A stretch of DNA of 64,000 bases from Candidatus Sericytochromatia bacterium (GCA_036676985.1 JAKFBU010000041.1:64001-128000), one strand, 5' to 3'. Numbered from the stretch's first letter, positions 31,415 through 57,828 are shown. The notes: generated from the letters alone by a model not told the origin. A program made the numbers and translations.

Positions 31415-31426
31415 CGGGTTGCCTTT

Positions 31427-31579
31427 ACCCCCCCTTCCCCCCCTGCCTTCGGCAAGGGGGGCTTTTTTCTAGGGACGGCCCCCTGCGGGGGCAGATTCCT
31501 TGTGAATAACTCACGTCTAAAAACCTGCGCAGCAGGACTCCCCATGCCCCCCTTGCGAAGCAGGGGGGGAAGGGGGGGT
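31427..31579. repeat. REP-doublet/MITE-like element family 1, copy A
   Basis: About 35-bp inverted arms ACCCCCCCTTCCCCCCCTGC(C)TTCG(G)CAAGGGGGGC; between convergent genes. Confidence 0.9.
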
Positions 31580-31590
31580 CAAAACGTCGG

Positions 31591-34377: not shown

Positions 34378-36549
34378 CTAGGCGAAGCGCATGCCGCCAG
34401 GCCCGAACTGCAAGCCCACCCGGGCGAACTGGTCCGCGGCATGGGGCACCAAGCCCGTATAACGGAAACTACCGACCACCCGACCCCGGTCGTCGAGGCC
34501 CTCCTGGTCGTAGGCGAACAGGTCCTGCATCACGATGACGTCCCCCTCCATGCCGGAGACCTCGGAGATGCGGACGATCTTTCGCGAACCGTCCTTGAGG
34601 CGGCTGATCTGGACGATCACCTGGATCGCCGAGGCGATCTGCTCACGGATGGCACGGCTCGGCAGCTCGACGCCGCTCATGAGGACCATGGTCTCCAGGC
34701 GGGACAGGGCGTCGCGCGGCGTGTTGGCGTGGCCGGTGGCCAGGCTGCCGTCGTGGCCCGTGTTCATGGCCTGCAGCATGTCGAGGGCCTCGCCCCCGCG
34801 CACCTCACCCACGATGATCCGGTCGGGACGCATACGCAGGCTGTTGCGCACCAGGTCGCGGATGGTGATGGCGCCCGAGCCCTCCAGGTTGGGGGGCCGA
34901 CTCTCCAGCGAGATGACGTGCTCCTGGTGGAGCTTCAGCTCGGCGGCGTCCTCGATGGTCACGATGCGCTCGTCCGCGGGGATGAAGCCCGACAGCACGT
35001 TCAAGAGCGTGGTCTTACCGGACCCGGTGCCGCCCGAGATGAAGACGTTCAGCTTCGCGAGGATCGAGCAGCGCAGGAAGTGCGCCATGTCCTGGTTCAG
35101 GCTCCCGTACTTCACCAGGTCGTCGATGCCGAGCCGGTAGTTGGGGAACTTTCGGATGGTCACCGTCGAGCCCGTGAGCGCCAAGGGCGGCACGATGACG
35201 TTGACGCGGCTGCCGTCCGGCAATCGGGCGTCGCACATGGGCGAGCTCTCGTCCACGCGGCGGCCGATGGGCGCCACGATGCGGTCGATGATGACGCGGA
35301 GCTGCTTCTCGTCGGTGAAGCCGTCCGGCACCCGCGTCAGCTTGCCGCTGCGCTCCACGTAGATCGTCTTGGGACCGTTGACCATGACCTCGGTGACGGC
35401 CGGATCGCCCAGGTACCGCTCCAGGGGGCCGAAGCCCACGGCCTCGTCGGCAATCGCGTTGATGAAGGCGACCCGCTCCTGGCGGCCCTTGAGGGGGACC
35501 TCCTCCATCTGCTCGAGGATCTCGGCGATGACCTCCAGCACCTTGGAACGGATCTCGCCCTTGCGCGCGGGGTCGGCCAGGTACTCCAGGGACAGGTTGA
35601 AGCGCTTGAGGGCCTCCACCAGCTCCTTGTGGACCTCGCGCTTGAAGTCGTCCAACTCGGCGTCCTCGGGCACGCCCTGGTGCGGGACGACGGCCGTGAC
35701 CTCGGTCTCGGTCGCCGCCGGAACCGGAGCGGCGGGAGTCGAGGCGCCCTGTAGGGGAGCCTGCGGGGTCGCGGGGGCGGTCGCCCTTGCGAGCACGCCC
35801 TGGGCGGCGGTGAGCAGGTTGCCCGCGGGCAGGGCCAGGGCCTTGGCGCCCAGTTGCAAGATGCCCGCCGAGACTGGGTGGTTGGGCTGCTTGAGGACGA
35901 TGGGCTCGCCGCGGTTGAGCGAGCTCACGACCGCGCCGCTCGAGGGGATCTGCCCGATGATGGGGCGCTCCAGGTGCTCCTCCAGGTCGTCGGCCGTGAT
36001 CTCGCCGACCGAGCCTGCGCGGTTCATGACCACCTGGATCTTCTCCAGGGGGAAGCGCAGGGCGCGGGCCTGCTCGATGGCGGCCTTGGAGGCGTTGAGG
36101 GTCGTGATGTCGGGCGGCACCACCATGAGCACCACCGAGGCCATGTCGAAGAGCGCCACCATGGCCTCGTGGCCGAGGCTCGGGAAGGTCGTGTCGACGA
36201 TGAGGAGCTCGAACTGCTTGGCCAGATCCCGGGCCATGGCGGCCACGTGGTGGGCCCGCGGGTCCAGGAGGTCCGTGAGCGGCGGGGCGGGCAAGAGCGA
36301 GACGCCCGAGGGATGCGGGGTGAGCACGTCGTCCAGGGACTTGGAGCCCCGGATCACGTCCGCCCAAGAGCCCGGCGCGGGCTCGAGGTCCAGGTACGAG
36401 GCCTGGGATCCGCCGCCCATCCAGTCCAGGTCCCACAAGAGGGTGGGGCGCTTGGTGCGCTTGGCGATCGCCACGGCCAGGTTGCCGGCCGTCACCGACC
36501 GTCCCAGGCCTCCCTTGGCGCCAAAGACCAGAATCAGGCGGCTAGGCAT
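34378..36549 (-). CDS. cpaF: Fused CpaE/TadZ (MinD-like) and CpaF/TadA pilus ATPase
   Basis: N-terminal GAKGGLGRS and LIVDT; C-terminal [32 protein letters not shown]. Confidence 0.9.
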
Positions 36550-36550
36550 C

Positions 36551-37573
36551 TCACCGCTTCCCGTAGTCGTTTTCGGGCATGGCGTTGGGGTTGGTCACGA
36601 TGGTGGGCGTCAGGAGGAAGACGAGCTCCGTGTGGCTGCCGCGATCGTCATGCGTCTTGAAGAGCTCGCCCAGGAAGGGGATGCTCGACAGCAAGGGGAT
36701 GCCCGAGGTCGTCTCCTCGGTGGTGTCGGAGAGGAGGCCCGCCATGGCGATGGTCTCACCCGAGCGCAGCTGCATGTAGGACTCCGTCCAGCGGGTCGAG
36801 ATAGCGGGCACCGAGATGCCGGAGAGGGTGATGCCGTTCTGGCGGTCGATGCGCGAGACCTCGGGGCGGACGCCGAGCACGATGGTGTCGGCGCCCTCGA
36901 CCCGCGGCGTGACGGCGAGGCGGACGCCGAAGGGCTTCCACTCGATGGTGACGCTCTGGGGCAGGATGATGGGGATGGGGATCTCGCCGCCCGCCAGGAA
37001 GCTCGCGCTCGCGCCGTTGACGGCCAAGAGGGTCGGCTGCGCCAGGATCTTGGCCTTGCGCTGCTGGACCAGCATGTCGAGCTTGGCCTCGATGAGGGTC
37101 TGGCGGGTGGGCAGGCCGATCCGGAAGGGGGCGTTGGGCGGAGCCTCGATCCAGCTGACGGAGTCGCTCCAGTCCACGCCGGCCTTGGCGTCGTCGGCGC
37201 GCACGATCTCCAGCACCTTGACCCGCACGGCCACGGTCTCGGGACGGCGGTTGCTCAAGACCTCGATGTTGTAGTTGCGGACCGGTCCCTGAATGGTGCG
37301 CCCGTCCGGCCCTTTGGTGGGCGAGGGCCACACGAGAAAGTTGGTGAAGCCCGGCTTCTTGGCGCTGATCAGGAGGTCCCGGTTCTGGCCCGAGAGCGGC
37401 TTGGCGTCGATGACCTCGCCGTCGCCCACCGCCACCCGTTCGACCCCTTCGGGAACGGTGTAGACGATGGTCTGGCCCATCCGGATGACGATGTCCGGCG
37501 CTGCTGCCTGGGCGGGCAGGGCCGGAAGCATCAGGAGGAGGGTCAGGATGACGGCGAACCAGGGACGCTGCAC
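36551..37573 (-). CDS. cpaC: Tad secretin CpaC/RcpA
   Basis: VAVGDGEVID N-domain; ASFLAGGEIP, WKPFGVRL, IPLLSSIPFLGELF, TELVFLLTP. Confidence 0.88.
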   Translation of the reverse strand: MQRPWFAVILTLLLMLPALPAQAAAPDIVIRMGQTIVYTVPEGVERVAVGDGEVIDAKPLSGQNRDLLISAKKPGFTNFLVWPSPTKGPDGRTIQGPVRNYNIEVLSNRRPETVAVRVKVLEIVRADDAKAGVDWSDSVSWIEAPPNAPFRIGLPTRQTLIEAKLDMLVQQRKAKILAQPTLLAVNGASASFLAGGEIPIPIILPQSVTIEWKPFGVRLAVTPRVEGADTIVLGVRPEVSRIDRQNGITLSGISVPAISTRWTESYMQLRSGETIAMAGLLSDTTEETTSGIPLLSSIPFLGELFKTHDDRGSHTELVFLLTPTIVTNPNAMPENDYGKR

Positions 37574-37588
37574 GGTGGTACTCCTAGG

Positions 37589-38608
37589 CTACTTCTTGTG
37601 AATGAGCGTCGTGCCGCTGTAGACCTCGATGCCGGGCTTGGGCTCGACAGGCTTCGGCCTGGGCGGCTGGGGCTTGGGGCGCGCCTGGACGACCACGGGG
37701 CGCTCCTTGACGATGACCTTGGTCTGGACGGGTCGCGGCTGCGGGGCCACGGGCCGGGGGATCTTGCCCATCACGTAGCGCACGAGCTCCGCCTCGGGGA
37801 TCTCGGGGGGCGTGACGGTGGTGTCGCCCTGCTCGCGCAACGAGAGGCTCAGGTTGCCCTGCTCCTTGAGGGCGGCGAGCAGCGCCACCTTGTTGGAAGG
37901 CACGGCGAGCGTCAGCAGATCGCCGTAGGCCCCGGCCTCACCCTCGGCCTGGGGCGTCTCGTTGCTGAAGCGGTTGCCGACCGACAGCACGCGCACCCGC
38001 TGGGCGACCTTGGTCGAGAGGAAGCCGGTGTCGGTCTGGATGGTGGCCGTGAGGTCCACGTAGTCGTCCGGCTTGACCAGCGCGATGTCCTGGGCGCCCT
38101 CGGGCACGTACAGGAAGCCGCGTTCGTTGGCCTCCAGCTTGGGGGCCACGCCGGTGGCAGCAGACGCCGGGCCCACGCGCTTCTTGTGCAGGACCTCGCC
38201 CTTGACCACAGGGGCGAGGGTGATCTGGCCGAGCAGCTCCTTGGTGTCGGTGATAGCGCCGTCCGGCAGCAGGCCCTTGGGGAACTTGCGGGCCTCGATC
38301 ATGGACTCGTCGATCTGCTTGCGGGCGGGCAGGTCCTCGAGCGGCACGTAGACCTCGACCTTCTCGCCCTTGCCGGCGATGCCGTCCTCGAGGTCCGAGA
38401 GGTACGTGATGGCGAGCAGTCCCGCCACCAGGGCGATGCCCACCGAGGCGAGCAGCAGCTTTCGGTTGACGTCCATGCCCGCCAGGAGGGACTTGGACTC
38501 CTTCTTCTTGGCGGCCGGGCGCTTCTTGGTCTTGACCGTGCCCTTGACGCCCGAGCGCGCGGGCTTCTCGGGAGGCTGCTCGCGAAGCTTATCGCGTAGA
38601 TTTGCCAT
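37589..38608 (-). CDS. cpaB: Flp pilus assembly protein CpaB/RcpC
   Basis: TM, SAF-like domain, VKPDDYVDL, VRVLSVG, LSLSLR. Confidence 0.85.
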   Translation of the reverse strand: MANLRDKLREQPPEKPARSGVKGTVKTKKRPAAKKKESKSLLAGMDVNRKLLLASVGIALVAGLLAITYLSDLEDGIAGKGEKVEVYVPLEDLPARKQIDESMIEARKFPKGLLPDGAITDTKELLGQITLAPVVKGEVLHKKRVGPASAATGVAPKLEANERGFLYVPEGAQDIALVKPDDYVDLTATIQTDTGFLSTKVAQRVRVLSVGNRFSNETPQAEGEAGAYGDLLTLAVPSNKVALLAALKEQGNLSLSLREQGDTTVTPPEIPEAELVRYVMGKIPRPVAPQPRPVQTKVIVKERPVVVQARPKPQPPRPKPVEPKPGIEVYSGTTLIHKK

Positions 38609-38993
38609 GGCTCGCCTCCTCCCTCGATATCCAGACCGTCGTCTTGCGTTCTTTTCCGGCCACCACGACCCTGAGTTGCGCGTCGCCCTGCTCGTAGAGC
38701 AGAAGGGCCAAGGGGACCTTTTCGAGATCCTGGTTGAGGACGTCGTCCGCGACGGCCTCCTGCCACCCGCGCTTCGGCAGCTCGCGGCGGTAGAAGGCCA
38801 CGACCTCCTTCAAGCTCGCTTGCTGGGTCGCGATCGCCTCGGTCCCATTGCCGCGATTAGTGGCGGGACGCGGCTTGGCGCCAGGATACAGCGGTATCTT
38901 ACCCGCCGCAAGGTCTGCCGTCACACCGGCGAGCGACTTGCCGGGCGCCAGAACGAGCACCAGCGCGAGCCCCAGTCCCAACCACCGGTTCAT
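38589..38993 (-). CDS. Secreted hypothetical protein in the Tad operon
   Basis: Signal peptide; IPLYPGA, VVAFYRRELPKRGW; overlaps both neighbours. Confidence 0.7.
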   Translation of the reverse strand: MNRWLGLGLALVLVLAPGKSLAGVTADLAAGKIPLYPGAKPRPATNRGNGTEAIATQQASLKEVVAFYRRELPKRGWQEAVADDVLNQDLEKVPLALLLYEQGDAQLRVVVAGKERKTTVWISREEASHGKSTR

Positions 38994-39778
38994 GGCGTCT
39001 TTCCCGACAGCGTGTTGCGGATCCAGGGGTTGAGCTCCGAGAGTCCGAACCCTGCTCCGTGCACGGGCAGCTCGCTCGGCATGTAGCCCTCGGCACGCAC
39101 GCCCACCTTGTCCCAGAGCTTGGTGGACTTGCCCGTCACGAGCTTGGAGCCCTCCTCGGCGCCCTTGCCCAGGCCGTCCATCCAGGGACCGCGAGACGTG
39201 ACACGCTGGCCGTGCATGACAAAGCCGATGCCGAACTTGCCCGTGGGGTCCTTGGCCACGTAGGCGCGGCCCATGACGCCGACCGGAATGACCTTGGTCA
39301 GCTGCTGGCGGGGCACGGCCGGCTCGTACCGCCAGGACGGACCCGAAACGTCCACCTTGCGCGACTTGCCCAGGACCTTGCGGGCATATTCGACGCGGGT
39401 GGCGGTGTTGCCCGCCTCGCGGATGATGCCGAGGCCCATGACCTTCTCGTCGGCGGCACCGTCCATGGCGGCGATGGCCGCCTCGCGCGCGGCGAAGCGC
39501 GCCGCGACGACGGCATTCTGGCTCTCGTAGATGGCAAAGCCGATGAACGCCAGGGCGAGCAGGAGGAAGACGAGCAGGGGAATGAGCAGCCCCGCCTCGA
39601 CCATGGCCTGGCCGCGCTGTCTCTTGGCATTTCCCCCCACACGAAAAGCACGCGTCAGCAGGGCGTTTCCGTCACCCCGGCGAAGGCCGGGGGCCAGGGC
39701 ATGCGCCCCGAGTGCCAACCCTGGATCCCGGCTGTCGACGGGATGACGGGCGACGCACGCAACAACGGCACGCCACAC
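38990..39778 (-). CDS. tadE: TadE-like minor pilin with a repeat-extended leader; start uncertain
   Basis: RG|QAMVE class III signal, AARFAAR; GTG 39778 follows the tadG stop with GGAG upstream. Confidence 0.8.
   Translation of the reverse strand: MWRAVVACVARHPVDSRDPGLALGAHALAPGLRRGDGNALLTRAFRVGGNAKRQRGQAMVEAGLLIPLLVFLLLALAFIGFAIYESQNAVVAARFAAREAAIAAMDGAADEKVMGLGIIREAGNTATRVEYARKVLGKSRKVDVSGPSWRYEPAVPRQQLTKVIPVGVMGRAYVAKDPTGKFGIGFVMHGQRVTSRGPWMDGLGKGAEEGSKLVTGKSTKLWDKVGVRAEGYMPSELPVHGAGFGLSELNPWIRNTLSGKTP
39669..39749. repeat. REP-like inverted pair (family 3) in frame within the tadE leader
   Basis: CCGTCACCCCGGCGAAGGCCGGGGGCCAGGG ... CCCTGGATCCCGGCTGTCGACGGGATGACGG; 81 bp. Confidence 0.85.
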
Positions 39779-39782
39779 GGCG

Positions 39783-40667
39783 CTAATGCTCCGAGACAAT
39801 GTTGCCTCCCGCCGCCGGACTGCCGAAGCTACCCTCGTGCTTCTGCCCCGTACGGATGAGCCTGGGGGAGTACCAGCGCAAGCTGCCGGGCCCCAGCTGC
39901 AGCTTCTTGCCCTTGGCCGCGGGGTCCTTCTCGATCTCGTGGCTCGCGGCGTAGCCCGCCGATGCCCACGCCGGCACGTCCACCGGCCCGCCGATGCCGC
40001 CGAAGCCGAAGAACGACCAGTTGAGGCCCTGGTACCGGGGCACGACCTCGATGAAGCTCTTGCCCGCGCCCTTCTTGGGACCGAGCCCCTGGTTGACGTA
40101 GTTCACGTCCGCCACGAAGGAGGACTTGTCGCTGTTCTCGCGGATGGCCCCCGGCGCCTTGATGGCGTTGAAGTTCGCCATCTCGAGGGCCTGCCCCCCG
40201 GCTGCGTGGTCGTTCATCCCCTGGATGTTGGCCACGTAGGCGAGGCGGGCGGCCTCCTCGACGATCTGGGGACCGGCCTGATCGACCCAGGCGTTGTAGG
40301 CCAGCAGGTCCTTGCGCAGGCTCTGGACCCGGCCGATGTACTGCTCCGCCCGGGCGAGGCGCCGGTTGAACTCCGCGTCGTTGTCGAGGTTGCCCATGGC
40401 ATGCATGAGCTCGATGCGGGCCCGCAGGGCCTGCCCGGTCATGGCCACGTAGGCCATCTCGCGCGTGTGGTGCACGCTCACCTTGACCGAGACGGCGGCC
40501 AGGGCCGCGGCATCCGCCGCGTTCTGGGCCCGGATCTTGGCCGTGACCAGCCGCCCCAGGTCGAATAGGGCCAAGAGCACGGTGACGAGCACCGCCATCA
40601 CGAGCGCCACGTAGATGAGCGCTTGACCGGACTCGTCTCTCAGCAGATCGGGACGGCGGGACCTCAT
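39783..40667 (-). CDS. tadG: TadG-like minor pilin
   Basis: DESG|QAL, LFDLGR, AQNAADAAALAA. Confidence 0.85.
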   Translation of the reverse strand: MRSRRPDLLRDESGQALIYVALVMAVLVTVLLALFDLGRLVTAKIRAQNAADAAALAAVSVKVSVHHTREMAYVAMTGQALRARIELMHAMGNLDNDAEFNRRLARAEQYIGRVQSLRKDLLAYNAWVDQAGPQIVEEAARLAYVANIQGMNDHAAGGQALEMANFNAIKAPGAIRENSDKSSFVADVNYVNQGLGPKKGAGKSFIEVVPRYQGLNWSFFGFGGIGGPVDVPAWASAGYAASHEIEKDPAAKGKKLQLGPGSLRWYSPRLIRTGQKHEGSFGSPAAGGNIVSEH

Positions 40668-41623
40668 TTCAGATCCCCCGTGGTGGTGAAGAGCGACATC
40701 TCCATGGCCCGGATGGGCGTCAGGATGACTCCCTCGGCGGTGGTCGCCGCCGTGCGGGCCACGCCCTGCAAGACGGAGATGGCGATCTTGACGGTCGGAT
40801 CCGAGGGCGTCTTCGAGAGGCCCTGCAGGGTGCGCATGGCGCCGGGCGCGAGCTTCATGCTGTTGTAGAGGCGCTCGGAAGGACGCAGGTAGGCCGCCTC
40901 GCCCGGGGCGGTCTCGAGGTCCGACGAGGCGTAGACGGCAGCCTCCGTGCGGCCCACCCGGTAGCGCTCGTCGCGGCCGGGGTTGTCCTGCACGGCCTGG
41001 AGGGGCGAGAAGGTGAACAGGGTGGCCAGACCCTTGACGCTGTCGGGCAGGGGCAGGGACTGAACCTGACTTGCGGCCCGCTGGAGGCCCCCCAGGTAGA
41101 CGTTGAGGCCCGGGATGTCGATGGGGTAGTTGACGATGCCGTTGGCCGGGTACTGCGCGGCCGACTTGGCGCCCCGACCCTGCACGTATTCGCGGTTGAC
41201 GACGATGGAGGCGCCGATCTGTCCCTTGCCCTGGCTGCCGCCGCCCCCGAAGGCCGCGAGCATGTCGCCGAGGGAGGTCTCCTTCTTGGTGACCTGGACC
41301 CGGATGGCACGGTCGGCGGCCTCGGTCTTGACGTCCAGCTTGCCCTCGGAGCCCGAGACCACCTTGCCGATCCAGGGCTGCTTGGAGTCCTCGGAGTAGG
41401 CGCGCATGACCTCCTGGGCCGCGAGACTCGGGTTGTTGCCCTCCTTGCCGCCCACGGTCGCGGCGCGCGCCGCGAGGAAACCCGCCCCGGAGAGGATGAT
41501 CTGGCGCTGCAGGAAGACGCCGAGCTCGATGGTCCCGATGGTCAACAGCAGGAGCATGGGCAGGATGATGGCGAACTCCGCCATGGTCTGGCCCTCTTCG
41601 CGCCGCCGTAACTGCCGGAGCAT
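40664..41623 (-). CDS. tadE: TadE-like minor pilin
   Basis: REEG|QTMAEFAIILP, LAARAA. Confidence 0.85.
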   Translation of the reverse strand: MLRQLRRREEGQTMAEFAIILPMLLLLTIGTIELGVFLQRQIILSGAGFLAARAATVGGKEGNNPSLAAQEVMRAYSEDSKQPWIGKVVSGSEGKLDVKTEAADRAIRVQVTKKETSLGDMLAAFGGGGSQGKGQIGASIVVNREYVQGRGAKSAAQYPANGIVNYPIDIPGLNVYLGGLQRAASQVQSLPLPDSVKGLATLFTFSPLQAVQDNPGRDERYRVGRTEAAVYASSDLETAPGEAAYLRPSERLYNSMKLAPGAMRTLQGLSKTPSDPTVKIAISVLQGVARTAATTAEGVILTPIRAMEMSLFTTTGDLK

Positions 41624-41625
41624 CG

Positions 41626-42165
41626 CTAACCTCCTGAGAAGCTCAAGAGGTGCGGGTAGAGCATCGCGCAGAGGGTGCCGGCGGCGATCGCCACGCCATA
41701 CGGAAAAGGCGGCAGCGCGCTCTTGGAGAGCATCGCCTCGGGCTTGGCCCCGGGGGTGAACATGGCCAGGAGGAAGTAGTAGAGGTTGCGCAGCACGGAC
41801 CACAGGGCGCCGTAGCGCAGGGCGAACAGGAGCGCGATGATGCCGCCGGCGAGGGCCACGTCGATCATGGCCACGATGATGAGTGGATAGCCGAGCCAGG
41901 TGCCGATGGCCACCATGAGCTTGAGGTCGCCCGCCCCCATTTTGGCGAAGAGGTACAGGAGCAGGAAGACGACCGCCGCGAGGCCGCCGCCCGCGAGGCT
42001 GCTCAGCAGGCCCGGCACGCCGCCGAAGACGACGCTGAGCAGCAGGCCCAGCCCCATCGCGGGGAAGGTGAGCCAGTTATAGATCCGGTGCCACCGCATG
42101 TCGGTATAGACGGCGATCATGAGCACCGGAAGCAGGGCCCATTGCCAGACGGGGATCGAACTCAT
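41626..42165 (-). CDS. cpaA: Prepilin peptidase CpaA/TadV (A24)
   Basis: AVYTDMRWHRIYNWL, MGAGDLKL, FPYGVAIAAG. Confidence 0.92.
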   Translation of the reverse strand: MSSIPVWQWALLPVLMIAVYTDMRWHRIYNWLTFPAMGLGLLLSVVFGGVPGLLSSLAGGGLAAVVFLLLYLFAKMGAGDLKLMVAIGTWLGYPLIIVAMIDVALAGGIIALLFALRYGALWSVLRNLYYFLLAMFTPGAKPEAMLSKSALPPFPYGVAIAAGTLCAMLYPHLLSFSGG

Positions 42166-42272: not shown

Positions 42273-42452
42273 TTAGATGCCCTTGCTCAGCGCATCGACC
42301 TTGTCGGCGAGCTTCTTGACCATGCCGTTGACCTTCTCACCGAGGATCTTGTAGGTACCGGCGCAAACGAGAGCCACGACGGCGATGATCAGGCCGTACT
42401 CGACCATCGACTGACCTTCCTCTTCGCGGACAATCTTCTTCAAAAGTTCCAT
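42273..42452 (-). CDS. flp: Flp family major pilin
   Basis: MELLKKIVREEEG|QSMVEYGLII; RBS GGAGG. Confidence 0.93.
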   Translation of the reverse strand: MELLKKIVREEEGQSMVEYGLIIAVVALVCAGTYKILGEKVNGMVKKLADKVDALSKGI

Positions 42453-42494: not shown

Positions 42495-42559
42495 CAAGGG
42501 TTATAGGGAGGTCCCCAGCGGATCCGGTAAGATTTACTTGAAGCTTACTTTAAAACGGG
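42495..42559 (-). promoter_or_regulatory. Putative flp promoter with direct repeats
   Basis: AAGTAA-gcttc-AAGTAA (11-bp period) upstream of TATAAC. Confidence 0.4.
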
Positions 42560-42579
42560 GCTAAATCGATCGCGAAGGC

Positions 42580-42942
42580 TCAGCGGGCGCGCATGAGGGC
42601 CTTGGAGTGGTGGCCGAAGGACAGGCCGAAGGCGCCGCCCAGCAGCTTGATGGACACAATCAGGCCCAGGGCGAGGGATCCGGCGATGAGGGCGTACTCG
42701 AGGGTGCTCTGGCCATCCTCGTTCACCAAGATCTCGCGCAGGAGGGCCGACGTTTCACCCCCCCTCCCCCCCCTGCTTCGCAAGGGGGGCACAGGGCGCC
42801 CTGCTTCGCAGGGATTGAAAGCGGGATCAGCAACGCTCGTGTCGCCCACAATAAACAACCCCCTGCGAAGCAGGGGGAAGTCCTCGTGCCCCCCTTGCGA
42901 AGCAGGGGGGGAAGGGGGGGTAGAACGAGTCACCACCCCCAT
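42580..42942 (-). CDS. flp: Second Flp family pilin with a repeat-extended leader
   Basis: NEDG|QSTLEYALI; ATG 2 nt after the upstream stop. Confidence 0.75.
   Translation of the reverse strand: MGVVTRSTPPSPPASQGGHEDFPLLRRGLFIVGDTSVADPAFNPCEAGRPVPPLRSRGGRGGETSALLREILVNEDGQSTLEYALIAGSLALGLIVSIKLLGGAFGLSFGHHSKALMRAR
42757..42921. repeat. Element family 1, copy B, in frame inside the flp leader
   Basis: Same arms as copies A, C, D; 165 bp on codon boundaries. Confidence 0.9.
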
Positions 42943-42944
42943 GG

Positions 42945-43442
42945 TTATTGCCCCGTCGACACGATCGGCACGTACAGCGTCAGGCTCGTGGGATAGTTGG
43001 CGTCGTCCAGGCCCATGAGCGTCACGGTCGCCGTGACGCTCCGCTTGGCCTTCAGGGCGTCCACCACCGACTGATCGACGATGGGCAGCACCGCCTTGCC
43101 CGTGCCCGCCACGAACTCCAGATCCTGGGTATTCGTCAATGACTCGCGCGGGTACTTCTTGAGGTACGTGGGCTCGACCCGCAGGCTCATGGCCATGCTC
43201 TTGTTGCCGATCCCCGAGTCCCCGTCGTACTTGATGTCCGCGCGGCCAAAGGTCGCGCCGAGCGACCCGTTCTGGCCCTGCACCGTCACCGTGGGATTTG
43301 TAAACGTTGCCTTGGAGCCCTCGATGGTCACCTGCACCGTCGCCGGCTCGATGTTCGTCACGCTGAGCTGCGCCGGCACGTTGGTGTACCAGCCGCAGCC
43401 ACTGAGGGCCGCCAACACCGCCAGGATCCCGATCCGTTTCAC
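42945..43442 (-). CDS. Beta-rich lipoprotein linked to pilus genes
   Basis: Lipobox LSGC; RBS AGGAGG. Confidence 0.75.
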   Translation of the reverse strand: MKRIGILAVLAALSGCGWYTNVPAQLSVTNIEPATVQVTIEGSKATFTNPTVTVQGQNGSLGATFGRADIKYDGDSGIGNKSMAMSLRVEPTYLKKYPRESLTNTQDLEFVAGTGKAVLPIVDQSVVDALKAKRSVTATVTLMGLDDANYPTSLTLYVPIVSTGQ

Positions 43443-43472: not shown

Positions 43473-44558
43473 CTAGCTCGAGTACGAGCCGCTGCCGTGG
43501 AAGGCTCCGCGCATCATCCGCTGGAGCTCGTTGGGGTTCTCCGAGTACGACAACGCGTCGTCCAGGGAGATCTGGTCCTCCTGGTACAGGTTGAAGAGCG
43601 CCATGTTCATGCTCTGCATGCCGTCCATCTGGCCCTGCTCGATGACGTGCCGCAGGCCGTCCAGGTCGTTCTTGAAGACCAGGTCCTGCACCGTCGGAGT
43701 CGAGACCAGCACCTCGACCGCCGCGCGGCGGCCCCGGCCGTCGCCCTTGGGGATCAAGCGCTGCGAGATGGCCCCACGCAGGATGGCGCCCAGCTGGTGC
43801 CGGATGTTGTCCTGCTCGTGCGGCGGGAAGGTCGAGATGACGCGCGAGACCGTGCCCACGCTGTCCGTGGTGTGCATGGTGCTCATGACCAAGTGGCCCG
43901 TCTCCGCCGCCTTGACCGCCGCGAGGATGGTCTCCTGGTCACGCATCTCACCCACCAGGATGACGTCCGGATCCTGACGCAGCGCGTACTTGATGGCGTT
44001 GGGGTAGGTCAGGGTGTCCGCGCCCAGCTCGCGCTGGGTGATGACCGACTTCTTGCTGGTGTAGACGAACTCGATGGGGTCCTCGATGGTGAGGATATGG
44101 ACGTCCTTGGTCGTGTTGATGAACTCGACCATGGCCGCGAGCGTCGTCGACTTGCCCGAGCCCGTGGGGCCCGTGACGAGCACGAGGCCCTGGCGCTCGA
44201 GGGCGAGCTTCTTGATGACCGGCGGCAGGTCCATCTGGTCCACCGCGGGCGGCTTGAGGGGGATGACGCGGAAGGCCGCGCCGATGTTGCCCTGCTCGAA
44301 GTAGACGTTCACGCGGAAGCGCGCGAGCCCGTCGATGGTCAAGCTGATGTCGATCTCGCGGTTCTGCTCGAACAGCTGGCGCTGCTCGGTGTTCATCAAG
44401 CTGTAGAGCGCCTGGCGCGTGTCGGCGGGGGTCAGCGTCTTGTACTCGGTCGGGACGATGCGACCGTCGATGCGCAGCACCGGCGAGGTGCCCACCTTGA
44501 CGTGGATGTCCGACGCGCGCTTCTGAACCGCGGTGCGAAGAAAGTCGATGATATTCAT
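43473..44558 (-). CDS. pilT: PilT/PilU family type IV pilus retraction ATPase
   Basis: ASDIH, RFRVN, GPTGSGKSTT, EDPIE, LRQDPDVILVGEMRD, ETGHLVMSTMHT. Confidence 0.92.
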   Translation of the reverse strand: MNIIDFLRTAVQKRASDIHVKVGTSPVLRIDGRIVPTEYKTLTPADTRQALYSLMNTEQRQLFEQNREIDISLTIDGLARFRVNVYFEQGNIGAAFRVIPLKPPAVDQMDLPPVIKKLALERQGLVLVTGPTGSGKSTTLAAMVEFINTTKDVHILTIEDPIEFVYTSKKSVITQRELGADTLTYPNAIKYALRQDPDVILVGEMRDQETILAAVKAAETGHLVMSTMHTTDSVGTVSRVISTFPPHEQDNIRHQLGAILRGAISQRLIPKGDGRGRRAAVEVLVSTPTVQDLVFKNDLDGLRHVIEQGQMDGMQSMNMALFNLYQEDQISLDDALSYSENPNELQRMMRGAFHGSGSYSS

Positions 44559-44578
44559 GCGCGGATGATCGTCCTGTC

Positions 44579-45163
44579 TTAAGCGTTGGTCGCGGGGGCG
44601 GCCTGCGCCAGCTGCGCGAGCGGGAAGCCGACAGCGCGGTTGAGGATGCGCTGGATGTCGAACAGGTTGCGGATCGCGTCGGGGGCGGTGGTCTCCGAGA
44701 GCCACGTCTCGACGATCTGGCCCTTGTCGTCCAGGAAGGTAACGGTCATCGCGAGGTTGCTCGGCAGGAACTTGCCGGGCTGCACATTCTTGATCTCGTC
44801 CATGGCGGGCGGATCGTACTTGAGGTTGACCTCGCCGACCGTGTGGATCTTCTTCTTGCGGAAGGTGTGCGACTTGGGGAACAGGTTGATGAAGATGAAG
44901 TACGCCGAGGTCACGAGGATGACCTCGCAGGCGTAGAAGCTGCCGCCCTGCTCGCCGGGCTTGGAGGTCGTCGCCTCGAACTGGTAGTAGCAGCCCAGCA
45001 CGCGATCGGCCGGGTGGATCGTGTCGTACAGGATCTGGAGCAGGATCTGGCCCACGCCGGGGACTCCGCTCGCCTTCTTCATCAACTCCTGCATGCGCGG
45101 GTGATTGAAGGCATTGGCCTGGGGAGGCTGCTGGGGCTGCGACGACACGGTTTCTGCGCTCAC
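44579..45163 (-). CDS. Hypothetical cytoplasmic protein upstream of pilT
   Basis: RBS GGAGGG before GTG; typical codon bias; 20-bp gap to pilT. Confidence 0.7.
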   Translation of the reverse strand: MSAETVSSQPQQPPQANAFNHPRMQELMKKASGVPGVGQILLQILYDTIHPADRVLGCYYQFEATTSKPGEQGGSFYACEVILVTSAYFIFINLFPKSHTFRKKKIHTVGEVNLKYDPPAMDEIKNVQPGKFLPSNLAMTVTFLDDKGQIVETWLSETTAPDAIRNLFDIQRILNRAVGFPLAQLAQAAPATNA

Positions 45164-45305
45164 GTTACCCTCCGCGCGGCAGGATGCGGCTCCCGCCTCA
45201 ACTCGAGTTTGCTTGGACGGTGCTATTGTACCCCGGCGCTTGAGCCCCTAACGATCGTCAGGTGCTGGCGCGGCGGGGGGCTCTGGCGCATGGTCCGACG
45301 GCTCT

Positions 45306-45454
45306 ACCCCCCCATCCCCCCCTGCTTCGCAAGGGGGGCATAGCGAGTCCTGCTGCGCAGGATTGAAAGGCAAGAGCGCGCTATCAATCCGGCCCGGCTC
45401 TGCCGGGTCCAGTCCCTAAGCCCCCCTTGCGAAGCAGGGGGGGAAGGGGGGGGT
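45306..45454. repeat. Element family 1, copy C (inverse orientation to D)
   Basis: Same arms; internal GAGTCCTGCTGCGCAGG and CCCGGCTCTGCCGGGTCCAGTCCCT shared with D. Confidence 0.9.
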
Positions 45455-57590: not shown

Positions 57591-57678
57591 ATCGGCTTAG
57601 CACTTATTCGGCTGGAAAATGGGCGGATTTAAGGGGTTGTGAAGCTACGGGGCGGTGCTGCAGGAGGCGTGACTTCTT

Positions 57679-57828
57679 ACCCCCCCTTCCCCCCCTGCCT
57701 TCGGCAAGGGGGGCACAGGGACTGGACCCGGCGGAGCCGGGCCTGATTGGTTGTGGCTCACTCACGTTCAAACCTGCGCAGCAGGACTCCCTATGCCCCC
57801 CTTGCGAAGCAGGGGGGGAAGGGGGGGT
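57679..57828. repeat. Element family 1, copy D
   Basis: Same inverted arms; internal AAACCTGCGCAGCAGGACTCCC shared with A. Confidence 0.9.

Follow-up and report, generated by a model that had tools for sequence, protein, structure and literature searches.

A palindromic repeat in frame within the leader-coding part of an Flp-type prepilin gene, probably translated and removed with the leader

A 64,000-nt stretch of DNA from a Candidatus Sericytochromatia bacterium (GCA_036676985.1 JAKFBU010000041.1:64001-128000; the window, to which all plain coordinates below refer) carries on its minus strand a gene for an Flp-type prepilin, the leader-coding part of which holds a palindromic repeat specific to the genus. 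Comparison with relatives establishes that the repeat was inserted at this place, that the gene is in frame across it in two species, and that the sister species has no other canonical start codon between the repeat and the predicted cleavage site. Judging from these comparisons, we consider it probable (roughly 0.6) that translation runs from the ancestral ATG through the repeat, the product of which is then removed together with the leader.

The open reading frame (ORF) encodes 120 amino acids and begins two bases (CC) past the TAA of the upstream ORF, a spacing that makes translational coupling likely (Table 1). The frame, the position of the ATG and an insert of 165 bp, equal to 55 stop-free codons, had all been proposed from the sequence alone and were borne out on the minus strand. 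The 165 bp describe only the codon-aligned core, however; the full insertion, drawn to the termini conserved across the genome, is better taken as 189 bp, or 63 codons. Once these are removed, codons 1-3 and 67-77 are left, encoding a 14-residue leader as found in the outgroups. The prepilin carries a class III signal, G77|QSTLEYALIAGSLALGLIV, with Gly at -1, Glu at +5 and Tyr at +6 (G|xxxxEY), followed by a hydrophobic helix, and the G, E and Y are invariant in all nine sequences of alignment A1. Precomputed matches to Flp_Fap (PF04964) exist for the close relatives P0002, P0003, P0006 and P0008-P0010, the last of which is named 'Flp family type IVb pilin' by NCBI. The cleavage site, the nearby A24 peptidase and the complete Tad locus together support the Flp-type prepilin identity assigned by the sequence-only reading.

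Relatives of the upstream ORF are present in 39 of the 41 genomes searched, and a small Flp gene stands next in many of the 20 loci compared. Insert-free orthologues in two sister genera bear out the earlier claim of an insertion, for which an empty site was the proposed check. Empty flp sites are found in genomes G004 and G007 and in genus g2, whose orthologues are short forms without the insert; the orthologues of genus g4 (L033 and L034) encode 57 residues with a 14-residue leader (MRGLVGRLLRDERG and MRGIAARLLRDEHG), and their ATG directly abuts the upstream stop. No clear target-site duplication is visible at the flp junctions, where the filled and the empty sites come from different genera that are too diverged.

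In the sister species G001 (L032), the element occupies the same junction in a rearranged form, with loops of type B (see below) and a core that is 39 bp shorter, and is open from the same ATG. Alignment of the gene from G001 with that from the genome of the window (G000; 4.68 Mb, 79 contigs, 67.3% GC) requires indels of 3, 1, 1, 41 and 3 nt, so that the two genes are read in different frames within the element and come back into the same frame where it ends. The 14 codons between the repeat and G|Q in G001 contain no ATG, GTG or TTG, and at least the right arm must therefore be translated for any leader to be made. In the mature part, the two species differ at 14 of 129 nt; among its 43 codons, six changes are synonymous and four non-synonymous, and neither a frameshift nor a stop occurs. 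On this pattern of substitution, the mature pilin is under purifying selection and the gene functional.

Two protein searches returned 12 proteins. The clade of interest consists of the query (P0001), P0002-P0007 and P0011, a short call of the G001 gene, which makes eight genes including those of G000 and G001. In seven of the eight, an ORF runs from an ancestral-like N-terminus through the insert, whose form varies between the 55 codons of the G000 type, about 42 codons, and remnants: P0003 has one arm in frame (MKAVRS-TPPYPPALQGGQ-...), P0004 and P0006 retain remnants of the inner hairpin (SPCLAGG), P0005 a remnant of the right arm, and P0007 the element termini only. The eighth, P0002, was called from within the right arm, at the place equivalent to GTG 42790-42792. 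P0007 was considered as a true empty site and rejected, since its extra eight residues (VTRERRSA) match both conserved termini of the element; at the protein level, it is therefore read as the likely remnant of an internal deletion. The shared inner hairpin appears in three frames, as FPLLRRG in G000, CPPAKQG in G001 and, as deduced from the proteins, SPCLAGG in P0004 and P0006, which is the pattern expected if read-through alone is selected. No call with a truncated leader other than P0011 was found among the shorter proteins searched. A scan of JGI metagenomes with alignment A1 returned nine loci, the best 65% identical and none of the clade; a GTDB contig scan likewise returned nine loci, with the clade represented by G001 alone, and an exhaustive HMMER search gave 17 matches with no new clade members, the long matches being of low complexity. 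The P0011 record (L032/L085) bears the name of a cyanobacterial genus (Stenomitos sp.); a Photo_RC match is lacking in G000, and the label looks doubtful.

The description of the insert as a mobile-type palindromic repeat held up, with inverted arms, many dispersed copies, and filled and empty sites. The arms are 42 nt each and 93% complementary; on the coding strand, the left arm contains C7 (42914-42920), C7 (42905-42911) and G6 (42889-42894), and the right arm C6 (42784-42789), G8 (42766-42773) and G7 (42758-42764). The element has 106 BLAST matches in G000, merged by blastn into 39 loci, and searching with the arm as a regular expression (C7-NN-C7-loop-G6/7) yields 152 units, spread over 95 loci, or about 90 when a few false positives are allowed for. 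Three subfamilies are distinguished: type A has the loop TGCTTCGCAA and occurs mostly as inverted pairs about 115 nt apart, type B has the loop TGCTA, is mostly single and ends in a conserved cGACTCGTTCTA terminus, and type C has the loop CTCTAGAG and the flank AAGGAGGA. In the family consensus, the right arm is immediately preceded by an ATG or GTG that shares the frame of PPLRSRGGRGG. Many intergenic copies show a terminator-like T-run after the outer arms, which copies inside genes lack on the sense strand; the element may carry terminator and start-like modules. Two of the 21 genomes searched contain the family, namely G000 and G001 (the only other species of the genus; 35 matches), and it was not found in the 19 other relatives. 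Dispersed copies, terminal inverted repeats and no coding capacity for a transposase place it with miniature inverted-repeat elements and elements of the Rickettsia palindromic type. A RAYT transposase was considered as the mobiliser and rejected, as G000 (rated 100% complete) gave no match to Y1_Tnp (PF01797), a search that matched six of 14 known genomes as a control. An Rfam scan of 42500-43100 returned four weak matches, to microRNA and Burkholderia small RNA models, all far under the gathering scores and treated as chance. The window holds three further two-armed type-A copies, seemingly intergenic, at 31424-31586, 45303-45452 and 57672-57828 (95424-95586, 109303-109452 and 121672-121828 on contig C41).

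Members of the family also lie in frame in other genes, and the flp case is one of at least five or six. Outside flp, in-frame copies occur in the signal peptides of three lipoproteins, in the Sec-type signal peptides of two or three other proteins and in the body of one DUF58 protein. A cytochrome c lipoprotein (C38:59399-60082; MGLTRA-element-GIWVTLALTVLLMGC) and an S8 subtilase lipoprotein (C40:10491-12104) have the element between the ancestral ATG and the hydrophobic core; the first has the same ATG GGA CTG start as the element-free gene of G002, and the second has its ATG and the preceding bases in common with insert-free G004. In a CarboxypepD_reg lipoprotein (C61:18197-19675), the element is in frame before the hydrophobic core and contains no canonical start codon, and in an AMIN-domain secreted protein (C7:13220-14638) a single type-B unit precedes a Sec-type signal peptide, with the next canonical start 110 codons downstream; full read-through is thus needed at least in these two. 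The G001 orthologue of the AMIN protein is again in frame, with a spacer of 27 codons as against 17. (The four loci on C38, C40, C61 and C7 are L060-L063; their sister-genus orthologues are free of the repeat.) The DUF58 protein (C11:3477-4688; L064) has a copy in frame inside its body, and the approximately 55 C-terminal residues after the insert are conserved with the insert-free, 366-residue orthologues of G004 and G007; judged from this conserved end, the DUF58 case shows that ribosomes do read the element. The G001 DUF58 gene also has an insert, with the left arm in another frame. Empty sites are available for the cytochrome c (G002), the subtilase (G004, G007 and G002), the C61 lipoprotein (G004 and G007) and DUF58 (G004 and G007), and an in-frame copy is followed by a conserved downstream part both in DUF58, at its C-terminus, and in flp, in the mature pilin. 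We do not claim targeting to signal peptides, for which a rough estimate gives only about a two-fold excess over intergenic DNA.

Two further observations concern such sites. Type-C copies at C61:25578-25738 and C76:106172-106198 stand in frame just before signal-peptide-like stretches, one of the proteins being a CxxCH cytochrome. In G001, contigs C313, C231, C408 and C67 (L065, L070, L075 and L095) end inside repeat copies at the 5' ends of orthologous genes, which indicates that the family fragments short-read assemblies exactly at these sites.

A mechanism is proposed in which a non-autonomous, genus-specific repeat of about 189 bp, with G/C homopolymer arms and nested hairpins, would have inserted into the leader-coding part of the gene. 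Ribosomes finishing the upstream gene would restart at the ancestral ATG two bases past its stop, a coupling that would be the ancestral arrangement too, and would unwind the repeat and read straight through it, producing a leader of 77 residues instead of 14. The adjoining A24 prepilin peptidase would then cut after Gly77, and the repeat-encoded peptide would never reach the pilus. As the leader peptide is discarded, selection would act only on the repeat staying open and in frame, and not on the residues it encodes. Type IV prepilin leaders, normally 6-26 hydrophilic residues in the available part of PMC4471445, stay in the cytoplasm and are cut on its cytoplasmic side; a longer leader should therefore pose no topological problem. 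The proposal of the sequence-only reading that the insert is discarded at the protein level thus gains indirect support from the start-free stretch in G001, the restoration of frame, the in-frame remnants, the purifying selection and the other genes, whereas the alternative in-frame starts of G000 tell against it. Translation itself, its coupling to the upstream gene and cleavage of the long leader are what we infer from these comparisons.

Several findings weigh against this reading. The leader of 77 residues counted from the ATG is three times the range of 6-26 quoted in that part of PMC4471445, and G000 offers four alternative in-frame starts, GTG 42790-42792, TTG 42781-42783, TTG 42727-42729 and GTG 42724-42726, which would give leaders of 27, 24, 6 and 5 residues, respectively. 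The RNA is predicted to fold into one long, extremely stable hairpin (-177 kcal/mol, compared with -128 +/- 5.6 for 200 shuffles, none of which was as good; z = -8.7), the base of which starts right after the AUG and could hinder initiation. The inner hairpin and its T-rich tail TTGTTTATTG form a terminator-like site on the sense strand, one being seen where 0.9 are expected in shuffles; a homologous inner hairpin is present in G001. The prepilin itself scores 18.8 bits against Flp_Fap (E 0.0014), below the cut-off of 32.2. An element that is open and in frame is also common for the family: the length class that keeps the frame is found in 13 of the 25 two-armed type-A copies, the frame in use in the prepilin gene is stop-free in 33 of 50 orientations (81 of 150 when all six frames are taken), and both hold in 20 of 50, so that the state of G000 alone proves little. 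Finally, P0002-P0007 are gene calls from Logan assemblies, available as protein only and made by gene callers that favour long ORFs, and the NCBI call of the G001 gene, P0011, is a 41-residue hypothetical protein that begins at an ATG at residue 3 of the mature pilin.

A wider reading is more tentative, namely that the cleavable N-terminal export signals of this genus, both the class III prepilin leader and the hydrophilic starts of lipoprotein and Sec signal peptides, are safe harbours for a translated selfish element, with a family adapted to this niche, output that depends on upstream ribosomes, and G/C tracts that add a slippage switch. Adaptation of this kind would be reflected in the frame-keeping length class, the stop-free preferred frame and the ATG or GTG before the right arm, and the Arg/Gly/Lys-rich exit of the element would suit the positive start of a signal peptide. 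Translation would melt the large hairpin and the internal terminator, so that the output of the host gene would come to depend on ribosomes arriving from upstream.

Translation could instead begin inside the repeat, at the first two of the alternative codons of G000 or at a TTG TTG pair in G001, which we regard as unlikely. The leader would then have 24-27 residues and an Arg/Gly-rich start encoded by the right arm only, while the ancestral ATG and left arm would either not be translated or yield nothing of use. The ATG or GTG of the family consensus sits at this place, in frame with PPLRSRGGRGG, and P0002 was called from exactly there. In the C40 subtilase, the element-internal ATG and the following ...GGKK would make a textbook lipoprotein signal peptide, and in G001 a GGGGGA stretch lies a few bases ahead of the in-frame TTG TTG; a leader of 27 residues would also be close to the 26 of Aggregatibacter actinomycetemcomitans Flp1 given in the available part of PMC4471445. 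The internal codons sit in a long GC-rich helix, however, on which free ribosomes could hardly load, and such a start leaves the openness and frame of the left arm and core in G001 and in P0003-P0007 unexplained. Nor could it apply to the C61 copy, which is start-free, or to C7, start-free for 110 codons, where full read-through is needed.

Slippage in the G/C tracts could be laid over any of these readings as an on/off switch of the pilin, and such phase variation appears doubtful. The reading frame contains six runs of 6-8 G or C, the inner run of the right arm is one base longer in G000 (G8) than in G001 (G7), and in the type-A and type-B arms genome-wide the C tracts deviate from their most frequent length of 7 in 17 of 86 outer and 14 of 86 inner cases. 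These tracts belong to every copy of the repeat rather than to the pilin gene, though, and 6-8 is at the low end of known contingency loci. The contigs of public runs X1, X2 and X3 cover 42758-42785 and 42902-42920 without indels, one of them with 10 substitutions, although contigs hide minority variants. A search for runs listed 20 from 11 studies, of DNA or of unknown type, with no RNA source among them. The four that were compared (X1, X2, X3 and X5) consist of contigs that break off within the repeat (at 42785 and 42902 in X1 and X2, at 42783 and 42902 in X3); the repeat is not bridged end to end by any listed piece, nor are the two flanks of the gene joined as an empty site. A few skip joints in these contigs (42790 to 42887, 42888 or 42902, with sides of 20-25 letters) lie inside the repeat and probably derive from other copies.

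The sequence-only reading had named a start at the TTG or GTG just before NEDG as fatal to its own proposal, and G001 has no ATG, GTG or TTG at or near that place. Such a start, at TTG 42727-42729 or GTG 42724-42726, is very unlikely; the leader would have five or six residues, and the repeat would be a structured 5' untranslated region, perhaps a stabiliser, a processing site or an attenuator. Neither codon is preceded by a convincing Shine-Dalgarno sequence, outgroup leaders have 14 residues, and the keeping of the frame is left unexplained; these points are set against the facts that both codons are in frame about 20 nt past the end of the hairpin and that type IVa pilins with 6-residue leaders exist, according to the available part of PMC4471445. 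A second frame also stays open from one end of the repeat to the other and is closed by a TGA overlapping the in-frame GTG (GTGA; 42723-42729, minus strand), where ribosomes ending in that frame, including frameshifted ones, could stop and restart. Finally, it is highly improbable that the insertion has killed or silenced the gene, by way of the hairpin or the internal terminator, and that the uninterrupted second flp does the work: for all the terminator-like sense-strand hairpin, the very stable structure right after the start codon and an intact second flp with a strong GGAGG 127 nt downstream, the mature part is conserved between the two species, as detailed above, and in six further relatives, and the lipoprotein gene and this second flp stay paired across family and order.

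Rickettsia palindromic elements, reportedly described by Ogata et al. in 2000, offer one comparison for an element translated with its host gene. They are the classic case of in-frame intragenic repeats and, in the available part of PMC10969869, are palindromic, about 150 bp long, dispersed, often in frame as ORFs, matched by insert-free orthologues and without a transposase of their own, all of which resembles the family described here. Unlike them, the family described here consists of hairpins of G/C homopolymers, in a genome of 67% GC (the comparison is by description, and kinship in sequence is not expected), most of its in-gene copies lie in cleavable N-terminal export signals, so that the peptide is probably discarded and not kept on the protein surface, and the frame across the element differs between species. 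One earlier report describes single, annotation-based cases in which a repeat supplies the hydrophobic part, with no class III leader and no comparison of one gene across species for empty sites; the present repeat is situated ahead of the hydrophobic core, in the hydrophilic region, and is shared by at least five genes. Searches of the literature, covering open-access text, turned up neither a repeat within a prepilin leader nor a repeat family that occurs again and again in cleavable signals.

Doublets of repetitive extragenic palindromic (REP) sequences, or REPINs, are mobilised by RAYT transposases. As in REPINs, a long hairpin arises from a short palindromic unit present in two inverted copies, with single units found as well and most copies intergenic; unlike REPINs, the present family has no Y1_Tnp/RAYT gene in G000 as far as the search could find. 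To our knowledge, REPINs are not known for in-frame coding insertions. Homopolymer-tract contingency genes encode pilus and surface proteins in, for example, Neisseria, Haemophilus and Campylobacter, and they share with the prepilin gene the runs of G or C inside the ORF of a surface structure. Here, by contrast, the tracts are short (6-8), were brought by the repeat and not evolved in the gene, and show no length polymorphism in the contigs that cover them. With Flp1 of A. actinomycetemcomitans and other Tad Flp pilins, as presented in the available part of PMC4471445, the prepilin shares its short body, the G|xxxxEY motif, the hydrophobic helix and a gene position beside an A24 peptidase, TadE/F-like pseudopilins, RcpC, a secretin and a TadZ/TadA-type ATPase; it differs in its 77-residue leader from the ATG, against 26 for the longest quoted there, and in a Pfam score below the family cut-off.

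The genes around the prepilin form a complete tad locus on the same strand, with Peptidase_A24, three TadE genes, Tad, RcpC, a secretin and a T2SSE ATPase fused to a ParA-like domain (Table 1).

Table 1. Features of the prepilin gene, its inserted repeat and the surrounding Tad locus (window coordinates; left and right refer to the coding direction).
Feature	Position	Strand	Basis or remark
Flp-type prepilin ORF, 120 amino acids	42580-42942	-	ORF translation
Ancestral ATG of the prepilin	42940-42942	-	Same place after the upstream stop in G001, G004 and G007
Inserted palindromic element including conserved termini, 189 bp, codons 4-66	42745-42933	-	Family termini consensus from genome census; outgroup leader length
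Core of 165 bp (55 codons, codons 8-62, TPPSPPA...RSRGGRGG)	42757-42921	-	Codon-aligned, stop-free
Inverted-repeat arm, left; coding-strand C7, C7, G6	42886-42927	.	
Inverted-repeat partner arm, right; coding-strand C6, G8, G7	42751-42792	.	
Inner hairpin CCCCCTGC-TTC-GCAGGGGG then TTGTTTATTG	42859-42877	-	Terminator-like in sense direction
In-frame GTG inside the element, just before the right arm	42790-42792	-	Alternative start, 27-residue leader
In-frame TTG and GTG, four to five codons before the cleavage Gly	42724-42729	-	Alternative starts, 6- or 5-residue leader; neither in G001
Gly77, -1 residue of the predicted prepilin peptidase site G|QSTLEY	42712-42714	-	Invariant in alignment A1
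Mature pilin, 43 amino acids (residues 78-120, starts QSTLEYALIAG), short Flp body	42583-42711	-	Stop codon 42580-42582
Upstream ORF, 165 amino acids, lipoprotein-like N-terminus	42945-43442	-	TAA stop 42945-42947
Second Flp pilin gene, uninterrupted, 59 amino acids from ATG, own GGAGG upstream	42273-42452	-	Flp_Fap E 5.8e-6
Prepilin peptidase Peptidase_A24, 179 amino acids	41626-42165	-	E 4.2e-16, 59.7 bits, cut-off 26.5
Remaining Tad genes: three TadE/TadG-like pseudopilins, RcpC/CpaB, secretin, ParA-like/T2SSE fusion ATPase	34378-41803	-	
Tad ATPase fused to ParA/CbiA-like (TadZ-type) domain	34378-36549	-	Single 723-residue ORF
PilT-like ATPase, head of Tad locus	43473-44705	-	

If the repeat is indeed translated and removed with the leader, disposable leaders and the starts of signal peptides can absorb 60 or more foreign codons without cost to the finished protein, and the prepilin would be a natural test of the leader length accepted by a prepilin peptidase (77 residues as against the quoted maximum of 26). 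There are consequences for annotation and assembly as well, in that gene callers starting after the repeat would strip the signal peptides from several exported proteins of G000, and the repeat family breaks short-read assemblies at these genes. Leaders and signal-peptide starts stay cytoplasmic and are cut off, which would explain where in-frame repeats survive; in this bacterium, such disposable signals seem to tolerate selfish DNA.

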